Shown: piece after piece, positions 10,379 through 56,905 of the stretch
Position numbering within the stretch: the stretch's first letter is position 1
How the letters are laid out: each line of letters opens with the position of its first letter
Assembly (NCBI RefSeq): GCF_054482595.1
Contig: NZ_CM137008.1
DNA: 64,000 nt
Direction: 5' to 3' (one strand)
Translations under genes and position numbers: made by a program
Notes under the pieces: model-generated
The model's database searches: none
The model's input: the letters and a program-made list of their open reading frames with translations, nothing else
Told to the model about the DNA's origin: nothing

Positions 10379-13246
<2,868 letters not shown>

Positions 13247-13603
13247 CTATTATTTTAGCCACATTATTAGTAACAATGATAATCTGGCTGTATCGAAAAT
13301 AATTCTAAACTTTCAGGAGATTTATTATGAATAAACGTATCCTCACGATTGTGCCATTCTTCTTACCGATATTCTGACACATATCATCAATTTTCGAGTT
13401 TTACTCTTTTCTCCACCATAAAATCAATAAAAGCACGAACTTTAGAGGGCATTCTCATCCGTGATGAAACATAAATATAAAATCCAGGAAATGAAACAGC
13501 CCAATCCTCAAGAATCGGCTGTAACTTGCCCGCATTGATATGTTCAGCGATTGCAAAATCCAGATGTTGAATGATACCCGTTCCATTCAGCGTGGATTTG
13601 CCC

Positions 13604-14509
13604 CTATATTTCCAGACACCTGTTATCACTTAACCCATTACTGGCTTGCTGCCGTAGATATTCCCGTGGCGAGCGATAACCCAGTGCACTATGCGGATGC
13701 CATTCGTTATAATGCTCGAATGCCTCTGCAAGGTTCTTTGCTGCCGTTAACCCGTCTGGTTTGGGCATGACACTGATGTAGTCACGCTTTATCGTTTTCA
13801 CGAAGCTCTCTGCTATGCCGTTACTCTCCGGACTCCGCACCGCCGTGTTCTTCGGTTCAAGCCCCAACATCCGGGCAAACTGCCGTGTTTCATTAGCCCG
13901 GTAGCATGAACCATTATCCGTCAGCCACTCTACTGGAGACGCCGGAAGCTCGTTGCCGAAACGGCGTTCCACCGCTCCCAGCATGACGTCCTGTACTGTT
14001 TCACTGTTGAAGCCGCCCGTAGTGACCGCCCAGTGCAGTGCCTCACGGTCACAGCAGTCCAGCGCGAACGTGACTCGCAGTTTTTCTCCGTTATCACAGC
14101 GGAACTCGAACCCGTCAGAGCACCATCGCTGATTACTTTCTTTCACAGCCACTCTGCCGGTATGTGCCCGTTTCGATGGCGGTACAGCGGGTTTTCGCTC
14201 AAGCAACAGCGCATTCTGGCGCATGATCCGGTAAATACGTTTGGCATTGATCGCAGGCATACCATCAAGTTCGGCCTGTCTGCGAAGCAGCGCCCATACC
14301 CGACGATAACCATATGTGGGCAGCTCTCCGATAACATGGTGTATACGGAGAAGCACATCCGTATCATCTGAGTGACGGCTGCGGCGACCATCTTTCCAGT
14401 CATCGGTTCGTCTGAGAATGACGTGCAACTGCGCACGCGACACCCGGAGACAACGGCTGACTAAGCTTACTCCCCATCCCCGGGCAATAAGGGCGCGTGC
14501 GCTATCCAC
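13604..14509 (-). CDS. insD: IS2 transposase OrfB (InsD, DDE integrase)
   Basis: 301-aa [23 protein letters not shown]... near-identical to IS2 InsD from memory. Confidence 0.9.
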
Positions 14510-14832
14510 TTTTTTGCACGCCCGTATTCAACGGCTTCTTTAAGGAGTTCATTTTCCATCGTTTTTTTGCCGAGCAGGCGCTGGAGTTCTTTAATCTGCT
14601 TCATGGCGGCAGCAAGTTCAGAGGCAGGAACGACCTGTTCTCCTGCGGCCACAGCAGTAAGACTTCCCTCCTGGTATTGCTTGCGCCAGAGAAATAACTG
14701 GCTGGCTGCCACACCGTGTTGCCGGGCAACAAGGGAGACTGTCATTCCCGGTTCAAAACTCTGCTGAACAATAGCGATCTTTTCCTGTGTAGTACGCCGT
14801 CTGCGTTTCTCCGGTCCTAAGACATCAATCAT
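14467..14832 (-). CDS. insC: IS2 transposase OrfA (InsC, HTH)
   Basis: ORF 14467..14877; start at [22 protein letters not shown] (14832); overlaps insD as expected for the frameshift-coupled pair. Confidence 0.9.
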
Positions 14833-15805
14833 CTGCTCTCCAATGACTAGTCTAAAAACTAGTATTAAGACTATCACTTAAATAAGTGATATTGGTTGTC
14901 TGGAGATTCAGGGGGCCAGTCTACAGCGCCATTCGTATCATGCTTTCGTCATCATTAGAAATATACTTACCTGAAACCTCTATTTCGAACTCTTCATTAC
15001 CCCCCACAACATTAGAAAACTCCCATGCAGAGAGTGCACCGCTACTTTTATGCCGCAACCGAAGGCAATTATGGTTACTCAGTTCCTGAGGCGTTTCAGG
15101 AATACCGTGTTCTTTTAAATAATCTGGCGATGCCACAGTAACCAGTTTAATAAGCGGAGAAACAGGAACGGCAGTCATATGCTCATCCAGTCCTTGCTCA
15201 AGACGTATGCCCACATCACAGCCGTCCGCAATAATGTTAGATAAACCGTCATCCATAATGAGTTCTATCTTTGTTTTGGGGTAACGAGTAAGAAACTCGC
15301 CAATATGAGGCTCAACAAGCATCCGTGCTGCAACACGGGAGGAATTTATTCTCAACAGGCCTGTAGGTTCAAGTTGGGTATCACCAACATCTTTCAAAGC
15401 ATCATCAATTTGCCCCAAAGCCGACACCAGCACTTCATACAGACGCTGTCCTTCCTCAGTAAGCGACATATTGCGGGTCGTACGGTATATCAGCTTGGTG
15501 TTAAGACGTTCCTCAAGAGATTTTAAATTCTGGGACAATGCGGCCCGCGTAATACCCATTTCAGAAGCGGCTCTGGAAAAACTGCCGGCACGAACAATCA
15601 GCGCAAACCAGGCAAGAGAAGGCAAAATTGAAGGCTCTATTTTCATCATTGTAAACCTTAACTTAACACTGTGATAGATATTAGACCATTGATGATAACC
15701 AATACAAGTCATACTATTACGCCGTTCTCGATATGAACACGAATGCCAGTTGCGGATAATAGAAATGATATTTAAATCTGTTTAGGCAAATCCCCGGAGC
15801 TTGAA

Positions 15806-16726
15806 ATGAAAACTGTTTCGATAAAACACACTTACTGGGATATAGCTGCTGATATCTATTTCCCTGACGATTTTAATAGTGAAAAAAAGTATCCTGCCAT
15901 TATCAGCGCCCATCCAATTGGAAGCTGCAAAGAACAGACATCGGGTAGTGTGTATGGTGCCGCCCTGGCAAAAGCTGGCTTTATCGTCATTGCTTTTGAT
16001 GCCAGTTTTCAGGGAAGCAGCGGTGGGGAACCGCGTTATCTGGAAGATCCAACAATGCGAGTAAAAGACTTCAGCATTGTCGTTGATTACCTTACCAGCT
16101 TACCTTACGTTGATGCCGGGCGTATTGGTGTACTGGGTATTTGTGGTGGAGGTGGATATGCCATTAATGCCGCAATGACAGAACGTCGAATTAAAGCTAT
16201 TGGTACTGTCACGGGTGCAAACTACGGGCGTCTTATGCGTGAGGGATTTACAGCGTTTAATCCTATCGGAGCACTCGAAGCAATGGCGCAACAAAGAACA
16301 GACGAAGCTAACGGCGCAAAACTTCGCGTAGATGATTTACTCCCCTCTTCTCCGGATGCAGCTCTTGAAGCGGGATTAACAGAAATAGACCTTTTTGAAG
16401 CCACAGAATATTATCGTTCGCCACGAGGCTATGCACCTAATGGGGTAAATCGTTCGCTATTCTCACATCAGACTGTTGCCGTGGGTTGGGATGCATTTCA
16501 TCTTGCAGAAGTCCTGTTAACTCAACCAATAATGGTTGTGGTGGGCGATAGAGTGGGCGCATTTGGTGCCTACCGTGACGGCTGCGAAATTATTGGCCGC
16601 GCTGCTTCAAAACATAAAGAGCTGGTCGTGGTTGAAGGTTATTCACATTACGACCTGTATGATAAGCCAGAACCTGTGAAACAGGCACTCGATAAATTAA
16701 TTCCTTTTTATAAAACACATTTATAA
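15806..16726 (+). CDS. Alpha/beta hydrolase (dienelactone-hydrolase-like)
   Basis: 306-aa ORF; nucleophile-elbow-like LGICGGGG; paralogous to the secreted hydrolase at 35494..36630. Confidence 0.75.
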   Translation: MKTVSIKHTYWDIAADIYFPDDFNSEKKYPAIISAHPIGSCKEQTSGSVYGAALAKAGFIVIAFDASFQGSSGGEPRYLEDPTMRVKDFSIVVDYLTSLPYVDAGRIGVLGICGGGGYAINAAMTERRIKAIGTVTGANYGRLMREGFTAFNPIGALEAMAQQRTDEANGAKLRVDDLLPSSPDAALEAGLTEIDLFEATEYYRSPRGYAPNGVNRSLFSHQTVAVGWDAFHLAEVLLTQPIMVVVGDRVGAFGAYRDGCEIIGRAASKHKELVVVEGYSHYDLYDKPEPVKQALDKLIPFYKTHL

Positions 16727-16735
16727 TAATTTTAC

Positions 16736-16756
16736 AGGGAGATCCCTTATCTCCCT
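16736..16756 (+). terminator. Hairpin after the hydrolase gene
   Basis: agggagatcccttatctccct inverted repeat. Confidence 0.4.
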
Positions 16757-16960
16757 GACATTTATCCTTTATTGACTACACAACAATAATAAAATTACTC
16801 AAAAAGAAATTTCATTAAAAAACAAAAAAGCAGCAACTCAATTATTAGAAACACTTTAAAGGGATTATAAATAAAGCCAGAACTCTTGGTTCCAAAGCTG
16901 GCAACAACTAACCAGTTAAAACATTCGCATCAAAATCAGATAAACATTTGAGGTATTGTT

Positions 16961-18103
16961 ATGACAAATAAACACCCATCATTGTTTTCTCCTTTTATGC
17001 TGACAGAAAAAATAAAGCTACGTAATCGTATCGTTATGGCTCCTATGACGACCTGGTCAGCGAATCCTGATGGAACCATCTCTGAGCAAGAACTCGAATT
17101 TTATAAACGCCGCTCACAAAATGTTGGTTTAGTAATAACAGGATGTACCTATGTCACGCCAAGCGGCATTGGGTTTACTCATGAATTTGCCGCATATGAC
17201 GACCGTTTCATTAACAGCCTTGAAAAGTTAGCAGCGGCAGCCCAAAGTGGGGGTGCTCCGGCTATTTTGCAGATTTTCCACGCCGGTAATAAAGCCATCC
17301 CGGAGCTTGTACCAAATAACGATGTTATTAGTGCCAGCGCATCAAGCGTAAAAAATGGTGACTTTATGAAGAGAGTGGTACAAAGCAGGGAAATGACTGA
17401 AAACGAAATTCAGGAAACCATTAGAGCATTCGGAGATGTCACAAAAAGGGCGATTAAAGCAGGTTTTGATGGCATTGAACTTCATGGTGCGCACGGATTC
17501 CTTCTACAGAATTTCTTCTCCCCTCTATTTAACCAGCGTAATGACCGATGGGGAGGAGATCTCGAAGGACGTATGCGCTTCCCGCTGGCCGTATTACAGG
17601 AAGTAAAAAATGTAGTCTATGAATATGCGACAAAGCCCTTTGCCATCGGTTACAGAATATCTCCTGAAGAATCTGCAACAGGGGGGCTGCGGATAGAGGA
17701 TACTTATAAACTCCTTGATCGGCTCATTTCATCCGGTATTTCGTATATACATACCTCGCTGGTCAGTATTAACGATAGCTACCCTGTTGAGTCGCCAAAT
17801 GGCCCCCGAACTATTGAATTGATTTTAAATCATATTGCAGGCAGAGTGCCGGTAATCGCTGCAGGTAAAATACGCACACCGTCTCAGGCTCAAGAAGCAA
17901 TTTCCACTGGCCTGCCACTTGTTGCGATCGGTAAAGGGCTGGTGATAAATCCAGAATGGGTGACTTTAGCTGAATCAGGTAGAGGCCATGAAATTCAAAC
18001 AACCCTTAATCCACAACTTGTTCCTGAATTAACCATTCCGGATAAACTATGGGATCAAATTCAGGCATCGAAAGGAACTGGCTGGTTTCCGTTAATGGAT
18101 TAA
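16961..18103 (+). CDS. NADH:flavin oxidoreductase, Old Yellow Enzyme family
   Basis: 380-aa ORF; OYE-type TIM-barrel signatures (RIVMAPMTT, LQIFHAGNKA, GFDGIELHGAHGFLLQNFFSP). Confidence 0.8.
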   Translation: MTNKHPSLFSPFMLTEKIKLRNRIVMAPMTTWSANPDGTISEQELEFYKRRSQNVGLVITGCTYVTPSGIGFTHEFAAYDDRFINSLEKLAAAAQSGGAPAILQIFHAGNKAIPELVPNNDVISASASSVKNGDFMKRVVQSREMTENEIQETIRAFGDVTKRAIKAGFDGIELHGAHGFLLQNFFSPLFNQRNDRWGGDLEGRMRFPLAVLQEVKNVVYEYATKPFAIGYRISPEESATGGLRIEDTYKLLDRLISSGISYIHTSLVSINDSYPVESPNGPRTIELILNHIAGRVPVIAAGKIRTPSQAQEAISTGLPLVAIGKGLVINPEWVTLAESGRGHEIQTTLNPQLVPELTIPDKLWDQIQASKGTGWFPLMD

Positions 18104-18576: not shown

Positions 18577-18678
18577 ATGAAAGAGAATAAAGTACAACAA
18601 ATCAGTCATAAACTGATTAATATCGTTGTTTTTGTCGCAATTGTAGAATACGCCTATTTATTTCTCCATTTCTATTAA
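18577..18678 (+). CDS. ykgR: Small 33-aa membrane protein YkgR
   Basis: ATG 18577 to TAA 18676-18678; MKENKVQQISHKLINIVVFVAIVEYAYLFLHFY; not in ORF track (below size cutoff); degraded paralog at 37927. Confidence 0.6.
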   Translation: MKENKVQQISHKLINIVVFVAIVEYAYLFLHFY

Positions 18679-19007
18679 TAACGGCAATAAACTGTTCACT
18701 TCAGTGATATTTAAAATATGCATCCTCTCCCTTTTTGTAAGTAATTATTATATCCGTGGGAGAGGAATACACGCTGTCAGGTAATCAATCATACTGCGAT
18801 AAATCATCGGCCAGTAAAGTGGAGATAACCTCCATTCTCGAAAAATCCATACTCTCAGCGAAACTATCATCAATCACTCATCCAGGCGTTTATGGGAGCG
18901 TCGCCAATGGCTGTTAACAATGCCAGACTTCCCCGTTGCGGAAATTCCACATACCACTAATGGTCACAGGGATTGGGTGTTGAAATGATCCGGATGAGCA
19001 TGTATCT

Positions 19008-27987: not shown

Positions 27988-28020
27988 GCCCCGCCAGCGA
28001 TAATAGCGGGGCTTCGTTTT
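27988..28020 (+). terminator. Rho-independent terminator after ykgJ
   Basis: gccccgccagcgataatagcggggc followed by ttcgtttt. Confidence 0.6.
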
Positions 28021-28169
28021 CAGGGACAACAAAACCCGAAACTTCTTGTATTTGCCAGCAACAATGCCTCTCTTCTGTAGCGTTCTTCGGATCTACATCA
28101 TCCTGAAGTAGCGCGATATACTCACTGACTATCTGAATCAGAATATAAAAAGCAATGTTTTTAACCTAT

Positions 28170-28199
28170 AAAAATGGCGCTGTATTTGCGCCATTTTTA
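28170..28199 (-). terminator. Rho-independent terminator after yagU
   Basis: aaaaatggcgctgtatttgcgccattttt; symmetric A/T runs. Confidence 0.6.
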
Positions 28200-28211
28200 T
28201 CATTCAATGCA

Positions 28212-37926: not shown

Positions 37927-38200
37927 TATGAAAACCGATCAATATCGTTGTTTTTGTTGCAACAGTAGAATACGCGTATTTATCCCTCCATTTCTATTAA
38001 TAACGGCAATAAACTGTTCATTTCACTGATATTTAAAATATGCATCCTTTTCAAGCTGTTCAGCGGCATAAGAAAACGTATTAAATATGAATTCGACGAT
38101 TTAACCATTTCTGTCTGATTGGTAATCATCTGTGATTAATGCTGGTCTATTGATTACGCCAGCATTAACCGCTTAGGGATGTATTCTTCCTGTTGATATA
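37927..38200 (+). repeat. Degraded paralog of the ykgR-ykgM-ykgO locus
   Basis: 37940-38040 aligns to 18625-18725 (about 90% identity by eye); 38050-38085 resembles the last codons of ykgO; 38090-38200 resembles the terminator region 19450-19560; the ykgR-like frame is disrupted. Confidence 0.6.
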
Positions 38201-39652: not shown

Positions 39653-39728
39653 TGGTGCCGATAATAGGAGTCGAACCTACGACCTTCGCATTACGAATGC
39701 GCTGCTCTACCAACTGAGCTATATCGGC
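39653..39728 (-). tRNA. thrW: tRNA-Thr (anticodon CGT)
   Basis: Reverse complement GCCGATATAGCTCAGTTGGTAGAGCAGCGCATTCGTAATGCGAAGGTCGTAGGTTCGACTCCTATTATCGGCACCA; cloverleaf with CGT anticodon and CCA end. Confidence 0.9.
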
Positions 39729-52706: not shown

Positions 52707-52900
52707 GTATCCGGCATCGGTGCACAACCGCCGGATGCGGCGTGAACGCCTTATCCGGCCTACCGATCCGGCACAGGTTTGTAGGCATGATAAGACGCGC
52801 CAGCGTCGCATCAGGCATCCGCGCACAATTGCCGGATGCGGCACAAGTTTGTAGGCATGATAAGACGCGCTAGCGTCGCATCAGGCATCCGCGCACAATT
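52707..52900. repeat. REP/BIME cluster (several REP palindromes)
   Basis: Repeated gccggatgcggcgtgaacgccttatccggcctac and gtaggcatgataagacgcgccagcgtcgcatcaggc units. Confidence 0.85.
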
Positions 52901-53396
52901 ATGAAATGATACGCTCCCCGGCACTAAAATCCGTTATGTTACCCGCCCAATCAATGGGATATAACCCTCGCGCCACATCGCGATGGAACGTTGAGAATGG
53001 CCAATCACACACCTGCTTTACCCAGCCATGTTTCACTGGATTTATATAAATATAATCAACATGATGCCGATAATCTTTTGTATTACGGATGGCATGCTCC
53101 CAAAAACGTGGTTGCCAGATATTTTTCAATCCACAAGCATGGGTGAATTGCTTTTTAATCTCTCTCCAGCGCGAGGAAAAATCATCATCGCCTTCAGGTA
53201 ATGTCCATATGCAATGCATATGCTCTGGCAAAACGACCCAAGCGTTGATTTCAAAAGGTCTGTCTCGCTTAACGTTAATAATAGCGTTACGGAGCATCTG
53301 GAACTGAGCGGTCAGAAGGTGGCTTCGACGATTTCGTAGGTTAACCGTGAAAAACCAGGTTCCCCCCTTGATGTAATACCGACGATATTCAGACAT
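52899..53396 (-). CDS. rayT: REP-associated tyrosine transposase (RAYT)
   Basis: 165-aa ORF with HuH-type motif (PEHMHCIWTLPEGD) and catalytic Tyr region; flanked by REP clusters on both sides. Confidence 0.8.
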   Translation of the reverse strand: MSEYRRYYIKGGTWFFTVNLRNRRSHLLTAQFQMLRNAIINVKRDRPFEINAWVVLPEHMHCIWTLPEGDDDFSSRWREIKKQFTHACGLKNIWQPRFWEHAIRNTKDYRHHVDYIYINPVKHGWVKQVCDWPFSTFHRDVARGLYPIDWAGNITDFSAGERIIS

Positions 53397-53479
53397 AGCG
53401 ACTCCTTTTTCTCAACGGTAAGAAGAAAAGGAAAGGTTGGCAATGAGGTTGTTTTATATCGGGAAAGCGGCTCGCAAAT

Positions 53480-53575
53480 ATTCGCGGGCTCGTAGGCATG
53501 ATAAGACGCGCCAGCGTCGCATCAGGCACCTGCGTACAACTGCCGGATGCGGCGTAAACGCCTTATCCGTCCTAC
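53480..53575. repeat. REP elements
   Basis: tcgtaggcatgataagacgcgccagcgtcgcatcaggc...gccggatgcggcgtaaacgccttatcc. Confidence 0.85.
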
Positions 53576-54321
53576 AAAATCGTCTCTTCCGTCAAAATCC
53601 GGCGCGCGCCTAAAAAATGATCCTGCCAGAAAGGTTCAGCTAACCGACTTACCCGAATGGTTTCCCCGGTGCGCGGTGACTCAATAAACTGACCGTCGCC
53701 CAGATATACCCCCATATGGTCGGCAATCTCGCGGCTGTGGATATGGAAAAACAGCAAATCTCCCCGGCGCAGGTCGTTATTCGCCACAATCGTTGCCCGA
53801 TGGTAGTGATACATCTCATTAGCCGTACGCTGGAGCTTCGCCTCGAGGATCTTGTTGTAGGCATAAAAAACCAACCCGCTACAGTCAAAGCCTTTATCAG
53901 GCCGCGTGCCGCCCCAGACGTAAGGCTTGCCAAGCTGCTGCTCCAGGCGGTGAATCGCCACTTCGGTAATGTTATGCAGATGGTCGCTGCTTAAAAAGTG
54001 GTTGTTTTCCGCCAGCGCCTGCCAGCGTCTGTCACTCGCCTTGAGCGGCGCAGGAAACCATTCTGGATGCTGTTTTATCTGTTCGCGGTTGTGCTGGCGC
54101 AGCGCCCTTCTGCTTTCGGCATTGCCTTCCACAATATAGCTGGCCTGCTTTTTCAGATGGGTTTGGTACTGTTTTAATAAACGCGCACGGTTTTGCATCC
54201 GCTGGCGGGCGGCGTAGCTGAAAGAGATATGTGATGTGGTGGCGCTGGCAAATGAAGAAAACGGCAAACAAATCAACAGTAATCCCGACAATACAAAGGA
54301 TGGAATCGACGGCAAGGACAT
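53572..54321 (-). CDS. yafL: NlpC/P60-family peptidoglycan endopeptidase lipoprotein YafL
   Basis: ORF 53572..54381; start at MSLPSIPSFVLSGLLLICLPFSSFA; catalytic Cys context GFDCSGLVFYAY and His (HMGVYLGDG). Confidence 0.85.
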   Translation of the reverse strand: MSLPSIPSFVLSGLLLICLPFSSFASATTSHISFSYAARQRMQNRARLLKQYQTHLKKQASYIVEGNAESRRALRQHNREQIKQHPEWFPAPLKASDRRWQALAENNHFLSSDHLHNITEVAIHRLEQQLGKPYVWGGTRPDKGFDCSGLVFYAYNKILEAKLQRTANEMYHYHRATIVANNDLRRGDLLFFHIHSREIADHMGVYLGDGQFIESPRTGETIRVSRLAEPFWQDHFLGARRILTEETIL

Positions 54322-54498
54322 ACTCAATAATGGCTGGTCATGCTTTAATGTTGCAGTGTATCCCGGATCGTTTCTGAACAAACTTAATAAACCATTATTA
54401 TAAAATTAACATATATATTTCAGTGAATTATGTAAATACATCAGTTTATTGAATTGCTCATAAATTGCCGCTGTTGCTCAATTGAGCTACAATTCAAG

Positions 54499-54514
54499 CT
54501 GAATATATATACAG
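54499..54514. promoter_or_regulatory. LexA box upstream of dinJ
   Basis: CTGAATATATATACAG 17 bp upstream of the dinJ start. Confidence 0.75.
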
Positions 54515-54530
54515 CACAGGAGATACCCCA

Positions 54531-54791
54531 ATGGCTGCAAATGCATTTGTTCGCGCCCGAATCGATGAAGATCTGAAGAATCAGGCGGCGGACGTACTGG
54601 CCGGGATGGGGCTGACCATCTCTGACCTGGTTCGCATAACCCTCACAAAGGTCGCGCGTGAAAAGGCATTGCCGTTTGATTTACGCGAGCCTAATCAATT
54701 AACCATTCAATCAATCAAAAACAGCGAAGCTGGCGTTGGTGTTCATAAGGCCAAAGACGCCGATGATTTATTTGATAAATTAGGAATTTAA
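54531..54791 (+). CDS. dinJ: Antitoxin DinJ
   Basis: 86-aa MAANAFVRARIDEDLKNQAADVLAGMGLTISDLVRITL... Confidence 0.9.
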   Translation: MAANAFVRARIDEDLKNQAADVLAGMGLTISDLVRITLTKVAREKALPFDLREPNQLTIQSIKNSEAGVGVHKAKDADDLFDKLGI

Positions 54792-54793
54792 AT

Positions 54794-55072
54794 ATGATTC
54801 AAAGGGATATTGAATACTCGGGACAATTTTCAAAGGATGTAAAACTTGCACAAAAGCGTCATAAGGATATGAATAAATTGAAATATCTTATGACGCTTCT
54901 TATCAATAATACTTTACCGCTTCCAGCTGTTTATAAAGACCACCCGCTGCAAGGTTCATGGAAAGGTTATCGCGATGCTCATGTCGAACCGGACTGGCTC
55001 CTGATTTACAAACTTACCGATAAACTTTTACGATTTGAGAGAACTGGAACTCACGCGGCGCTCTTTGGGTAA
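54794..55072 (+). CDS. yafQ: mRNA interferase toxin YafQ (RelE fold)
   Basis: 92-aa MIQRDIEYSGQFSKDVKLAQKRHKDMNKL...; 2 bp after dinJ. Confidence 0.9.
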   Translation: MIQRDIEYSGQFSKDVKLAQKRHKDMNKLKYLMTLLINNTLPLPAVYKDHPLQGSWKGYRDAHVEPDWLLIYKLTDKLLRFERTGTHAALFG

Positions 55073-55227
55073 AGCCCGCTGCCGATGAAATTTGTAAACC
55101 CTGCGCCGACAGGCTTGCGTAAAACTCTTTTGGTGATAATGTGAGCCTTCCAAATCCAGACTATTCCGATTTGGGATCCATTTTGCCGTCCTGGCGTGTG
55201 TAACCGTTTTATCAAGGAATAAGCAGT

Positions 55228-55968
55228 ATGCGTAAAATCGCATTAATTCTTGCGATGTTGTTGATCCCGTGCGTTTCGTTTGCCGGTTTGCTGGGCAGCA
55301 GTAGCTCGACCACGCCAGTGAGCAAAGAGTATAAGCAGCAGTTGATGGGATCCCCTGTCTACATCCAGATCTTCAAGGAAGAACGTACGCTCGATCTCTA
55401 CGTCAAAATGGGTGAGCAATATCAACTGCTCGACAGCTATAAAATCTGTAAATATTCCGGCGGCTTAGGGCCAAAACAGCGTCAGGGCGATTTCAAAAGC
55501 CCGGAAGGGTTTTATAGCGTCCAGCGTAATCAGTTAAAACCAGACAGCCGTTACTACAAAGCGATTAATATTGGTTTCCCCAATGCCTATGACCGTGCGC
55601 ATGGTTATGAAGGGAAATACCTGATGATCCACGGCGATTGTGTTTCCATCGGCTGCTACGCAATGACCAATCAGGGTATTGATGAGATCTTCCAGTTCGT
55701 TACTGGTGCGCTGGTGTTTGGTCAGCCGAGCGTGCAAGTGAGTATTTACCCGTTCCGCATGACCGACGCTAATATGAAGCGCCACAAATATTCCAACTTT
55801 AAGGACTTCTGGGAGCAACTGAAGCCAGGCTACGACTACTTTGAGCAAACCCGTAAGCCACCGACCGTTTCTGTGGTCAATGGCCGTTACGTGGTCAGCA
55901 AGCCGTTAAGCCACGAAGTTGTGCAACCACAACTGGCATCAAACTACACGCTCCCCGAGGCAAAATAA
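55228..55968 (+). CDS. yafK: L,D-transpeptidase-family periplasmic protein YafK
   Basis: 246-aa ORF with signal peptide; YkuD-like motif [14 protein letters not shown]. Confidence 0.85.
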
Positions 55969-56706
55969 GCGCCATTCGCCTGGCATAATCTTTTGCCAGG
56001 TTTCATTGCCCGTCAGCGGCTGTGTCGCAATCACCGTGACCACATCATTCGGTGTGGTCTGCGAGCTGAAGTCGATTTCTACATCCTGATCCAGCAACGT
56101 TGCCACGCCAAACGGCGCGCGGCGGGTGATCCAGTGTAAATTAGTCGAGCAATACGCCATTACATAGCGACCGTCCGAAAGCAGCATGTTGAAAACGCCC
56201 TTCGCCCGCAGTTCATCCGCCAGTGAGGCGATATATTTAAACACTGCCGCCATGTTGCCCGGCGTGCGCGGGTAACGCTGCGTTAATTTATGCAGGAGCC
56301 AGCAAAAGGCTTTTTCGCTGTCGGTTTCACCGACCGGGCGGAAGTTGCCGGTTTCCAGTGATTTGTAGCCCGTCAGTTGCCCGTTATGGGCATAAGTCCA
56401 GTTACGCCCCCATAACTCGCGGGTAAACGGGTGAGTATTTTCCAGCGCCACCTCGCCCCGATTAGCCTGGCGAATATGAGCCACCACCGAACAGGATTTT
56501 ATCGGGTAGTCCTGGACCAGTTTGGCGATAGGTGAGTTAAAGCTGGGTTGCGGATCTTTAAATGTGCGACAGCCTTTACCTTCGTAAAAGGTAATGCCCC
56601 AGCCATCTTTATGTGGCCCGGTTCCACCACCACGCTGCACCAGACCGGTGAAACTAAAGCAGATATCGGTAGGGACGTTGGCGCTCATCCCGAGCAATTC
56701 GCACAT
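55939..56706 (-). CDS. yafJ: Class II glutamine amidotransferase YafJ
   Basis: ORF 55939..56721; N-terminal [11 protein letters not shown] (Cys2 nucleophile). Confidence 0.85.
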
Positions 56707-56759
56707 GGGTAACCTCCACAACAGCGGGAGCGCATGGCCCCCGGCGAAGATTGATTTAA

Positions 56760-56905
56760 GAATTTTCAGGTCGGATGCGGCGTGAACGCATTATTCGGCC
56801 TACGGTTCGCGTACAGATTTGTAGGCATGATAAGACGCGTCAGCGTCGCATCAGGCATCGGTGCACAATTGCCGGATGCGGCGTAAACGTCTTATCCGGC
56901 CTACG
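56760..56905. repeat. REP/BIME cluster
   Basis: tcggatgcggcgtgaacgc...gtaggcatgataagacgcgtcagcgtcgcatcaggc...gccggatgcggcgtaaacgtcttatccggcctacgcc. Confidence 0.85.

Follow-up and report, generated by a model that had tools for sequence, protein, structure and literature searches.

IS2, which gives its name to the IS2 group of the IS3 family, transposes by a two-step copy-out/paste-in route in which asymmetric cleavage at the right terminal repeat (IRR) leads through a figure-of-eight to a minicircle, which is then integrated by the OrfAB transposase and flanked by direct repeats (PMC3299598). The repeats of the element measure 41 bp (IRR) and 42 bp (left repeat, IRL), and an A6G frameshift window has been described between its reading frames (PMC3299598). 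Abutment of the two ends in the minicircle creates a strong promoter, Pjunc, with a mandatory spacer of 17 bp (PMC3299598). D306 and E342 have been named as members of the catalytic triad (PMC3219604). Once integrated, IS2 can also form fusion promoters by means of an outward-facing −35 hexamer in IRR (PMC9330008), as in the case of ampC (Jaurin and Normark 1983, cited in PMC9330008).

The element considered here lies in a 64-kb window, the whole stretch of DNA that was analysed, where it divides a gene for a LysR-type regulator (LTTR) into two fragments (Table 1). The feature is almost certainly a simple, recent and strain-specific transposition of an intact IS2 into this gene, which lies on an E. 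coli chromosome and encodes an uncharacterised LTTR. No feature of the sequence speaks against this reading. As an event, the entry of IS2 into a gene is ordinary and of a kind already known. Its parts can be compared in turn with the reference copy of IS2 in K-12, with the empty site of related strains, with the IS2 fusion promoters and with a second IS2 that has entered the same gene in swine ETEC.

Table 1. Coordinates of the IS2 element, its genes and the interrupted LysR gene in the window.
Feature	Position	Strand	Remarks
Complete IS2, 1331 bp	13593..14923	−	Both transposase genes read on this strand; isoform with 95.6% identity to K-12 IS2A
IRR, 41-bp right terminal inverted repeat	13593..13633	−	Donor end, with candidate outward −35 hexamer TGGAAA
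IRL, 42-bp left terminal inverted repeat	14882..14923	−	Terminal TAG ends the truncated LysR frame
orfA (insC), 121 aa	14467..14832	−	IS2 repressor/DNA-binding protein; NF006928, K-12 comparison
orfB (insD), 301 codons	13604..14509	−	Integrase-core catalytic part of the transposase; NF006918, Pfam rve and rve_3
Slippery heptamer A AAA AAG	14509..14515	−	Programmed −1 frameshift giving OrfAB
Target-site duplication CAGCG (5 bp), left copy	13588..13592		
Target-site duplication CAGCG (5 bp), right copy	14924..14928		
LysR gene, 5' fragment	14921..15649	−	Codons 1-242 plus TAG from IS2; includes the HTH domain and roughly two-thirds of the effector-binding domain
LysR gene, 3' fragment	13387..13587	−	Codons 243-308 plus stop; parted from promoter and start codon; in frame after excision

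An IS2 isoform compared with K-12 IS2A

On re-reading of the sequence, exactly 1331 bp separate two CAGCG pentamers. The element starts with TGGATTTGCCCC... at 13593, which is the right repeat, and finishes with ...GGGGGCCAGTCTA at 14923, the left repeat; over the terminal ~17 nt both ends are those of K-12 IS2A (NC_000913.3 381260-382590) base for base. Read on the minus strand, IRL opens with TAGACTGGCCCCCTGAATCTCCAGACAACCAATATCACTTA and IRR closes with ...GTCTGGAAATATAGGGGCAAATCCA, and the outermost bases are again as in K-12. The ends of IS2 are recognised as imperfect repeats, a 41-bp IRR ending ...CA-3' and a 42-bp IRL starting 5'-TA, and this is the arrangement present here, the two repeats aligning with one gap. 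Searched for additional copies of IS2 and for large repeats, the window proved to contain one IS2, and nothing thus points to a composite element or to a product of recombination between insertion sequences.

The two transposase genes overlap. The heptamer A AAA AAG stands in phase with orfA at its end, and orfB begins at the last G of the heptamer. OrfA scores 276.4 bits against the NCBIfam model NF006928, "IS2 repressor TnpA" (cut-off 229), and OrfB 709.7 bits against NF006918, "IS2 transposase TnpB" (cut-off 597). The reconstructed OrfAB fusion comprises 409 aa with the Pfam domains HTH_Tnp_1, HTH_21, rve and rve_3, and D240, D306 and E342 are all kept.

By the ISfinder convention, an isoform of IS2 is about 1331 bp long, aligns without gaps and has at least 95% nucleotide identity to the reference. 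Against K-12 IS2A the window element shows 0 indels and 59 mismatches, an identity of 95.6% that passes the 95% threshold narrowly. Since its identity to the K-12 reference reaches only this value, the window copy is classed as an isoform of IS2 and not as a canonical copy. The two elements share their length of 1331 bp, a gap-free alignment and matching termini (TAGACTGGCCCCC... and ...GGGGCAAATCCA), as well as the A6G frameshift window and an OrfA with no difference from K-12 InsC1, and both are bordered by a 5-bp target duplication, ATTAC/ATTAC in the K-12 copy. They differ at the 59 nucleotides and in 10 OrfB substitutions in the window copy, with none at D240, D306 or E342. In the OrfA operator palindrome the two central bases also differ, TT in the window copy and AA in K-12 (IS positions 42-43). 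At these positions (window 14881-14882) the isoform reads CACTTATTTAAGTG and K-12 IS2 reads CACTTAAATAAGTG, the central TT being equivalent to the K-12 palindrome read from the opposite strand. The published OrfA docking site, 5'-TAAATAA-3', sits within that palindrome (PMC3299598).

Copies of IS2 that are 100% identical to this one occur at other sites on chromosomes and plasmids of other E. coli strains, where they are annotated as IS3-family transposase. The isoform is the less common form, with 383 records matching at 99% or more against 6,589 at 95-99%. Matches to IS2 as a whole were obtained in 4,899 of 5,426 complete E. coli genomes, at a median of 4 places per genome; chromosome records that hold the identical copy have 4-8 IS2 places each, counts that take in all IS2 matches, identical or not. 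All cis and trans parts needed for the copy-out/paste-in route are present in the window element. Because its termini, orfA and orfB, frameshift site and triad residues are intact, and identical copies are found elsewhere, the element is regarded as a complete, competent-looking isoform, apparently capable of transposition by every sequence criterion. An earlier reading of the window, made from the sequence only, had called it a complete IS2 with both termini, an assignment borne out by TnpA and TnpB scores above the NCBIfam cut-offs and by the gap-free alignment to K-12 IS2A.

Target-site duplication, empty site and age of the insertion

The left junction reads ...gttccatt CAGCG / TGGATTTGCCCCTATATTTCC... 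(13588-13593) and the right junction ...GGGGGCCAGTCTA / CAGCG ccattcg... (14923-14928). The chance of an identical pentamer at two fixed positions is about 1/1024, and a 5-bp duplication is likewise present at the control IS2 sites, namely K-12 IS2A and the swine ETEC copy described below. Excision in silico consisted of deleting 13593-14928, that is, the element and one pentamer. A stronger test than the chance estimate is given by the excised locus, which, with its single CAGCG, is identical over 1240 of 1240 bp in 12 complete genomes, in which it is annotated as one LysR family regulator. When the comparison with strain XH990, which has one CAGCG, is extended to 13,240 bp centred on the site, 13,239 bp of the excised window are identical. 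The sequence-only reading had placed the pentamers at 13588-13592 and 14924-14928 and had claimed that excision restores the LysR frame (...MIRMAL/NGTGIIQHL...). Re-inspection found the pentamers identical and the coordinates right, and re-translation gave an ORF of 308 aa, free of stops, equal to the product translated from the XH990 CDS that carries the annotation WP_021556516.1.

Neither IS/flank junction was detected among the 5,426 complete E. coli genomes with two 600-bp junction probes, and a 41-nt exact junction pattern was absent from the GTDB species representatives. Eighteen full-coverage matches to a junction probe were considered as the same insertion and rejected, being a separate IS2 insertion 709 bp away. 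The right flank, 24,972 bp, gives one ungapped match to XH990 and to GF66.1, with the maximum bit score of 46115 and listed as 100.0%; both strains have the empty site. Since the excised locus equals that of the empty-site genomes and the junctions occur in none of the 5,426, the insertion is taken to be recent, simple and strain-specific. The flanks are essentially identical to those of the empty-site strains across more than 30 kb, which places the insertion later than the split from them. The identity of the two pentamers, and that of the element to copies elsewhere, likewise fits a recent date. The same two observations, near-identical flanks at the empty site and the absence of either junction from the genome collection, uphold the earlier proposal of a recent simple transposition. 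Substitution rates commonly quoted for E. coli are of the order of 1e-7 to 1e-6 per site per year, and a rough calculation from them suggests an age of decades to at most a few centuries.

The wide occurrence of IS2 in E. coli (4,899 of 5,426 genomes, median 4 places) makes recombination between copies possible in principle, and the insertion might accordingly be the product of such an exchange between two IS2 copies or, alternatively, an old and inherited scar. The probability of either is very small. A rearrangement between insertion sequences is ruled out by the identity of the two 5-bp repeats and by the exact empty site with its one pentamer; the difference from XH990 amounts to 1 base in 13,240 bp, and 24,972 bp are listed as 100.0% in one piece. 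In addition, the junctions were found neither in the 5,426 complete genomes nor in the GTDB species representatives. An old scar is rejected on account of the intact parts of the element and of flanks that hardly differ from those of empty-site relatives.

A different concern is that the insertion, unique among thousands of genomes, reflects a misplacement of IS2 by the assembly, or an insertion that arose during laboratory passage and is absent from the natural population; IS2 does transpose during storage and culture. This is very unlikely to account for the locus, as a misassembly would not yield a precise 5-bp duplication at the exact termini of the element, and an insertion of laboratory origin would still be a genuine transposition, leaving the interpretation unchanged.

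A simple, recent transposition can be fitted to the pathway known from the literature. The OrfAB transposase would have cut the two strands 5 bp apart at CAGCG and integrated a copied-out IS2 minicircle there, and gap repair would then have doubled the pentamer.

The disrupted regulator and its neighbourhood

The CAGCG duplication takes in codon 242 as a whole and, before it, the final two bases of codon 241. Read along the coding strand, the gene runs ATG GCG CTG / TAG across the junction, where a stop is formed by the three bases with which IRL begins. Because the IRL terminus supplies this TAG immediately, the encoded product comprises exactly residues 1-242 (...MAL*), with no foreign tail and with the last 66 residues gone. 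The intact 308-aa protein contains HTH_1 (PF00126) at aa 11-68 and LysR_substrate (PF03466) at aa 94-301, and the insertion, after codon 242 of 308, falls in the effector-binding domain, of which truncation therefore removes the last ~60 residues. From the position of this domain, the regulator is most likely inactivated, although DNA binding could persist in a truncated LTTR whose HTH domain is preserved. Among the NCBIfam equivalogs the restored protein scores best against YafC (192.8, cut-off 470) and passes the cut-off of none, and the regulator is for that reason described as an uncharacterised LTTR.

The target gene is accessory, being found in 2,215 of the 5,426 complete E. coli genomes; about 116 genomes match the LysR locus with partial coverage. 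On one side it is neighboured by another LysR gene, two aldo-keto reductase genes and fdeC, and on the other, beyond the intergenic region 15650-15805, by a divergent pair encoding an alpha/beta hydrolase (15806-16726) and an Old-Yellow-Enzyme-type (OYE) flavin oxidoreductase (16961-18103), followed by ykgR-ykgMO-ecp. The whole block between fdeC and ykgR (window 10394-18103), with its two aldo-keto reductases, two LysR regulators, alpha/beta hydrolase and OYE flavin oxidoreductase, is accessory and confined to the same number of genomes. The divergent hydrolase and flavin-oxidoreductase genes are the probable target of the regulator, as assumed from their divergent arrangement. If it behaves as other members of the LTTR family do, its loss would deprive these genes of inducible control. 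The genes in question, regulator and neighbours alike, are accessory and uncharacterised, which is why the insertion predicts no known phenotype, and the significance of the insertion outside annotation is small. For annotation, the two LysR fragments are best recorded as one IS-disrupted pseudogene and not as two genes. The unique junctions (e.g. GTTCCATTCAGCG/TGGATTTGCCCC) may serve as a strain-specific marker for typing or for tracking the clone.

Two short reading frames border the 3' fragment or run into it. An unannotated ORF of 16 codons, MNKRILTIVPFFLPIF, lies at 13329-13379 on the plus strand with a good AGGAG ribosome-binding site 7 nt upstream; it is situated in the 200 bp that separate the two LysR genes and diverges from the left one. 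The swine ETEC locus, ~97.5% identical, has kept it with a single V-to-A change. A small hydrophobic protein, a leader peptide or mere chance could lie behind it. An 80-codon ORF at 13387-13629 on the minus strand has a GTG start inside IRR and continues in frame into the orphaned 66 LysR codons; as neither a ribosome-binding site nor promoter evidence was seen for it, it is probably not expressed.

Elsewhere in the window, a four-copy family of 111-nt direct repeats at 52732-56901 overlaps matches to the Rfam family naRNA4 (REP325/CssrE) in two places (53495-53572 and 56824-56901); these belong to the known repetitive extragenic elements of E. coli. A 117-nt AT-rich direct repeat is present in two copies, 91% identical and 19.3 kb apart (18610-18726 and 37932-38048), and matches no Rfam family at the gathering threshold. 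Rfam also gives a match to the sRNA candidate IS009 at 28008-28206 (minus strand, 183.6 bits) and a tRNA gene at 39656-39728 (minus strand), neither of which has a connection with the IS2 insertion.

Comparison with IS2 fusion promoters and with a second insertion in the gene

The fusion promoters formed by IS2 at ampC, acrEF and neoR have in common with the insertion described here the element itself and its outward −35 within IRR (PMC9330008). In those cases the flank contributes a well-spaced −10 upstream of a silent gene, whereas in the window there is no credible −10 in the flank and IRR looks onto the defunct 3' part of a gene. For this comparison a hybrid promoter was defined by a flank −10 lying 16-18 bp (optimum 17) downstream of the IRR −35 and upstream of an expressible gene, an arrangement that was not found at this site. 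The candidate outward −35, TGGAAA, which was derived here from the Pjunc spacer rule, ends 16 nt from the tip of IRR, and a −10 would begin about 1 bp outside the element. The hexamers available there are CGCTGA (0/6 matches), GCTGAA (2/6, spacer 17) and CTGAAT (3/6, spacer 18), the last without the key A at position 2. A consensus scan found no promoter-like site across either IS/flank junction. Downstream of IRR comes the dead 3' LysR fragment and then, after ~400 bp, the LysR gene at 12293-13186 on the minus strand, whose intergenic region contains its own promoter-like sites. The explicit spacing analysis and the consensus scan thus leave a hybrid promoter at this insertion unsupported. 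The sequence-only reading had pointed out that IS2 ends can create outward hybrid promoters; this holds for IS2 generally (PMC9330008) and finds no sequence support at this site, with a poor −10 and an empty scan.

The same data bear on whether the insertion might be adaptive or regulatory, either because the outward −35 of IRR, or read-out from the element, drives the LysR gene at 12293-13186, or because the truncated, HTH-bearing LTTR acts constitutively or as a dominant negative. Fusion promoters made through the IRR −35 are documented (PMC9330008), the geometry of Pjunc, with its mandatory 17-bp spacer, is what puts TGGAAA 16 nt from the end of IRR, and the 18 swine ETEC genomes, in which this gene carries an independent IS2 pointing the same way, could hint at selection. 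Such an effect is nonetheless judged quite unlikely, given that the flank offers as −10 only GCTGAA or CTGAAT, that no promoter-like site spans a junction, that the next gene is ~400 bp away with promoter-like sites of its own, and that two IS2 events in one gene could reflect chance or a target preference. A simple transposition that truncates the regulator remains the preferred reading.

A close counterpart of this insertion is found in the swine ETEC genomes themselves. In all 18 (for example K_EC180, NZ_CP062203.1, with IS2 at L002 4010-5340), IS2 interrupts the same LysR gene at codons 4-5. The two insertions agree in the gene, the IS family, the length of 1331 bp, the orientation and the presence of a 5-bp duplication. 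They differ in the site, which in the swine ETEC genomes corresponds to window-equivalent 15633-15637, in the duplicated sequence, GGCTC/GGCTC, and in the element, which has 22 mismatches to the window copy. Because both the site and the IS2 variant differ, the swine ETEC insertion is an independent event, and the gene has been hit by IS2 at least twice. Whether this marks the regulator as a recurrent IS2 target is doubtful: selection to silence or deregulate the adjacent genes, whether those for hydrolase and flavin oxidoreductase or those for aldo-keto reductases, is conceivable and rated as unlikely; in that case the truncated HTH-bearing protein, or read-out from IS2, would change the expression of neighbours. 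The window insertion adds one more data point on the activity of IS2, together with a gene that the element has entered twice independently.
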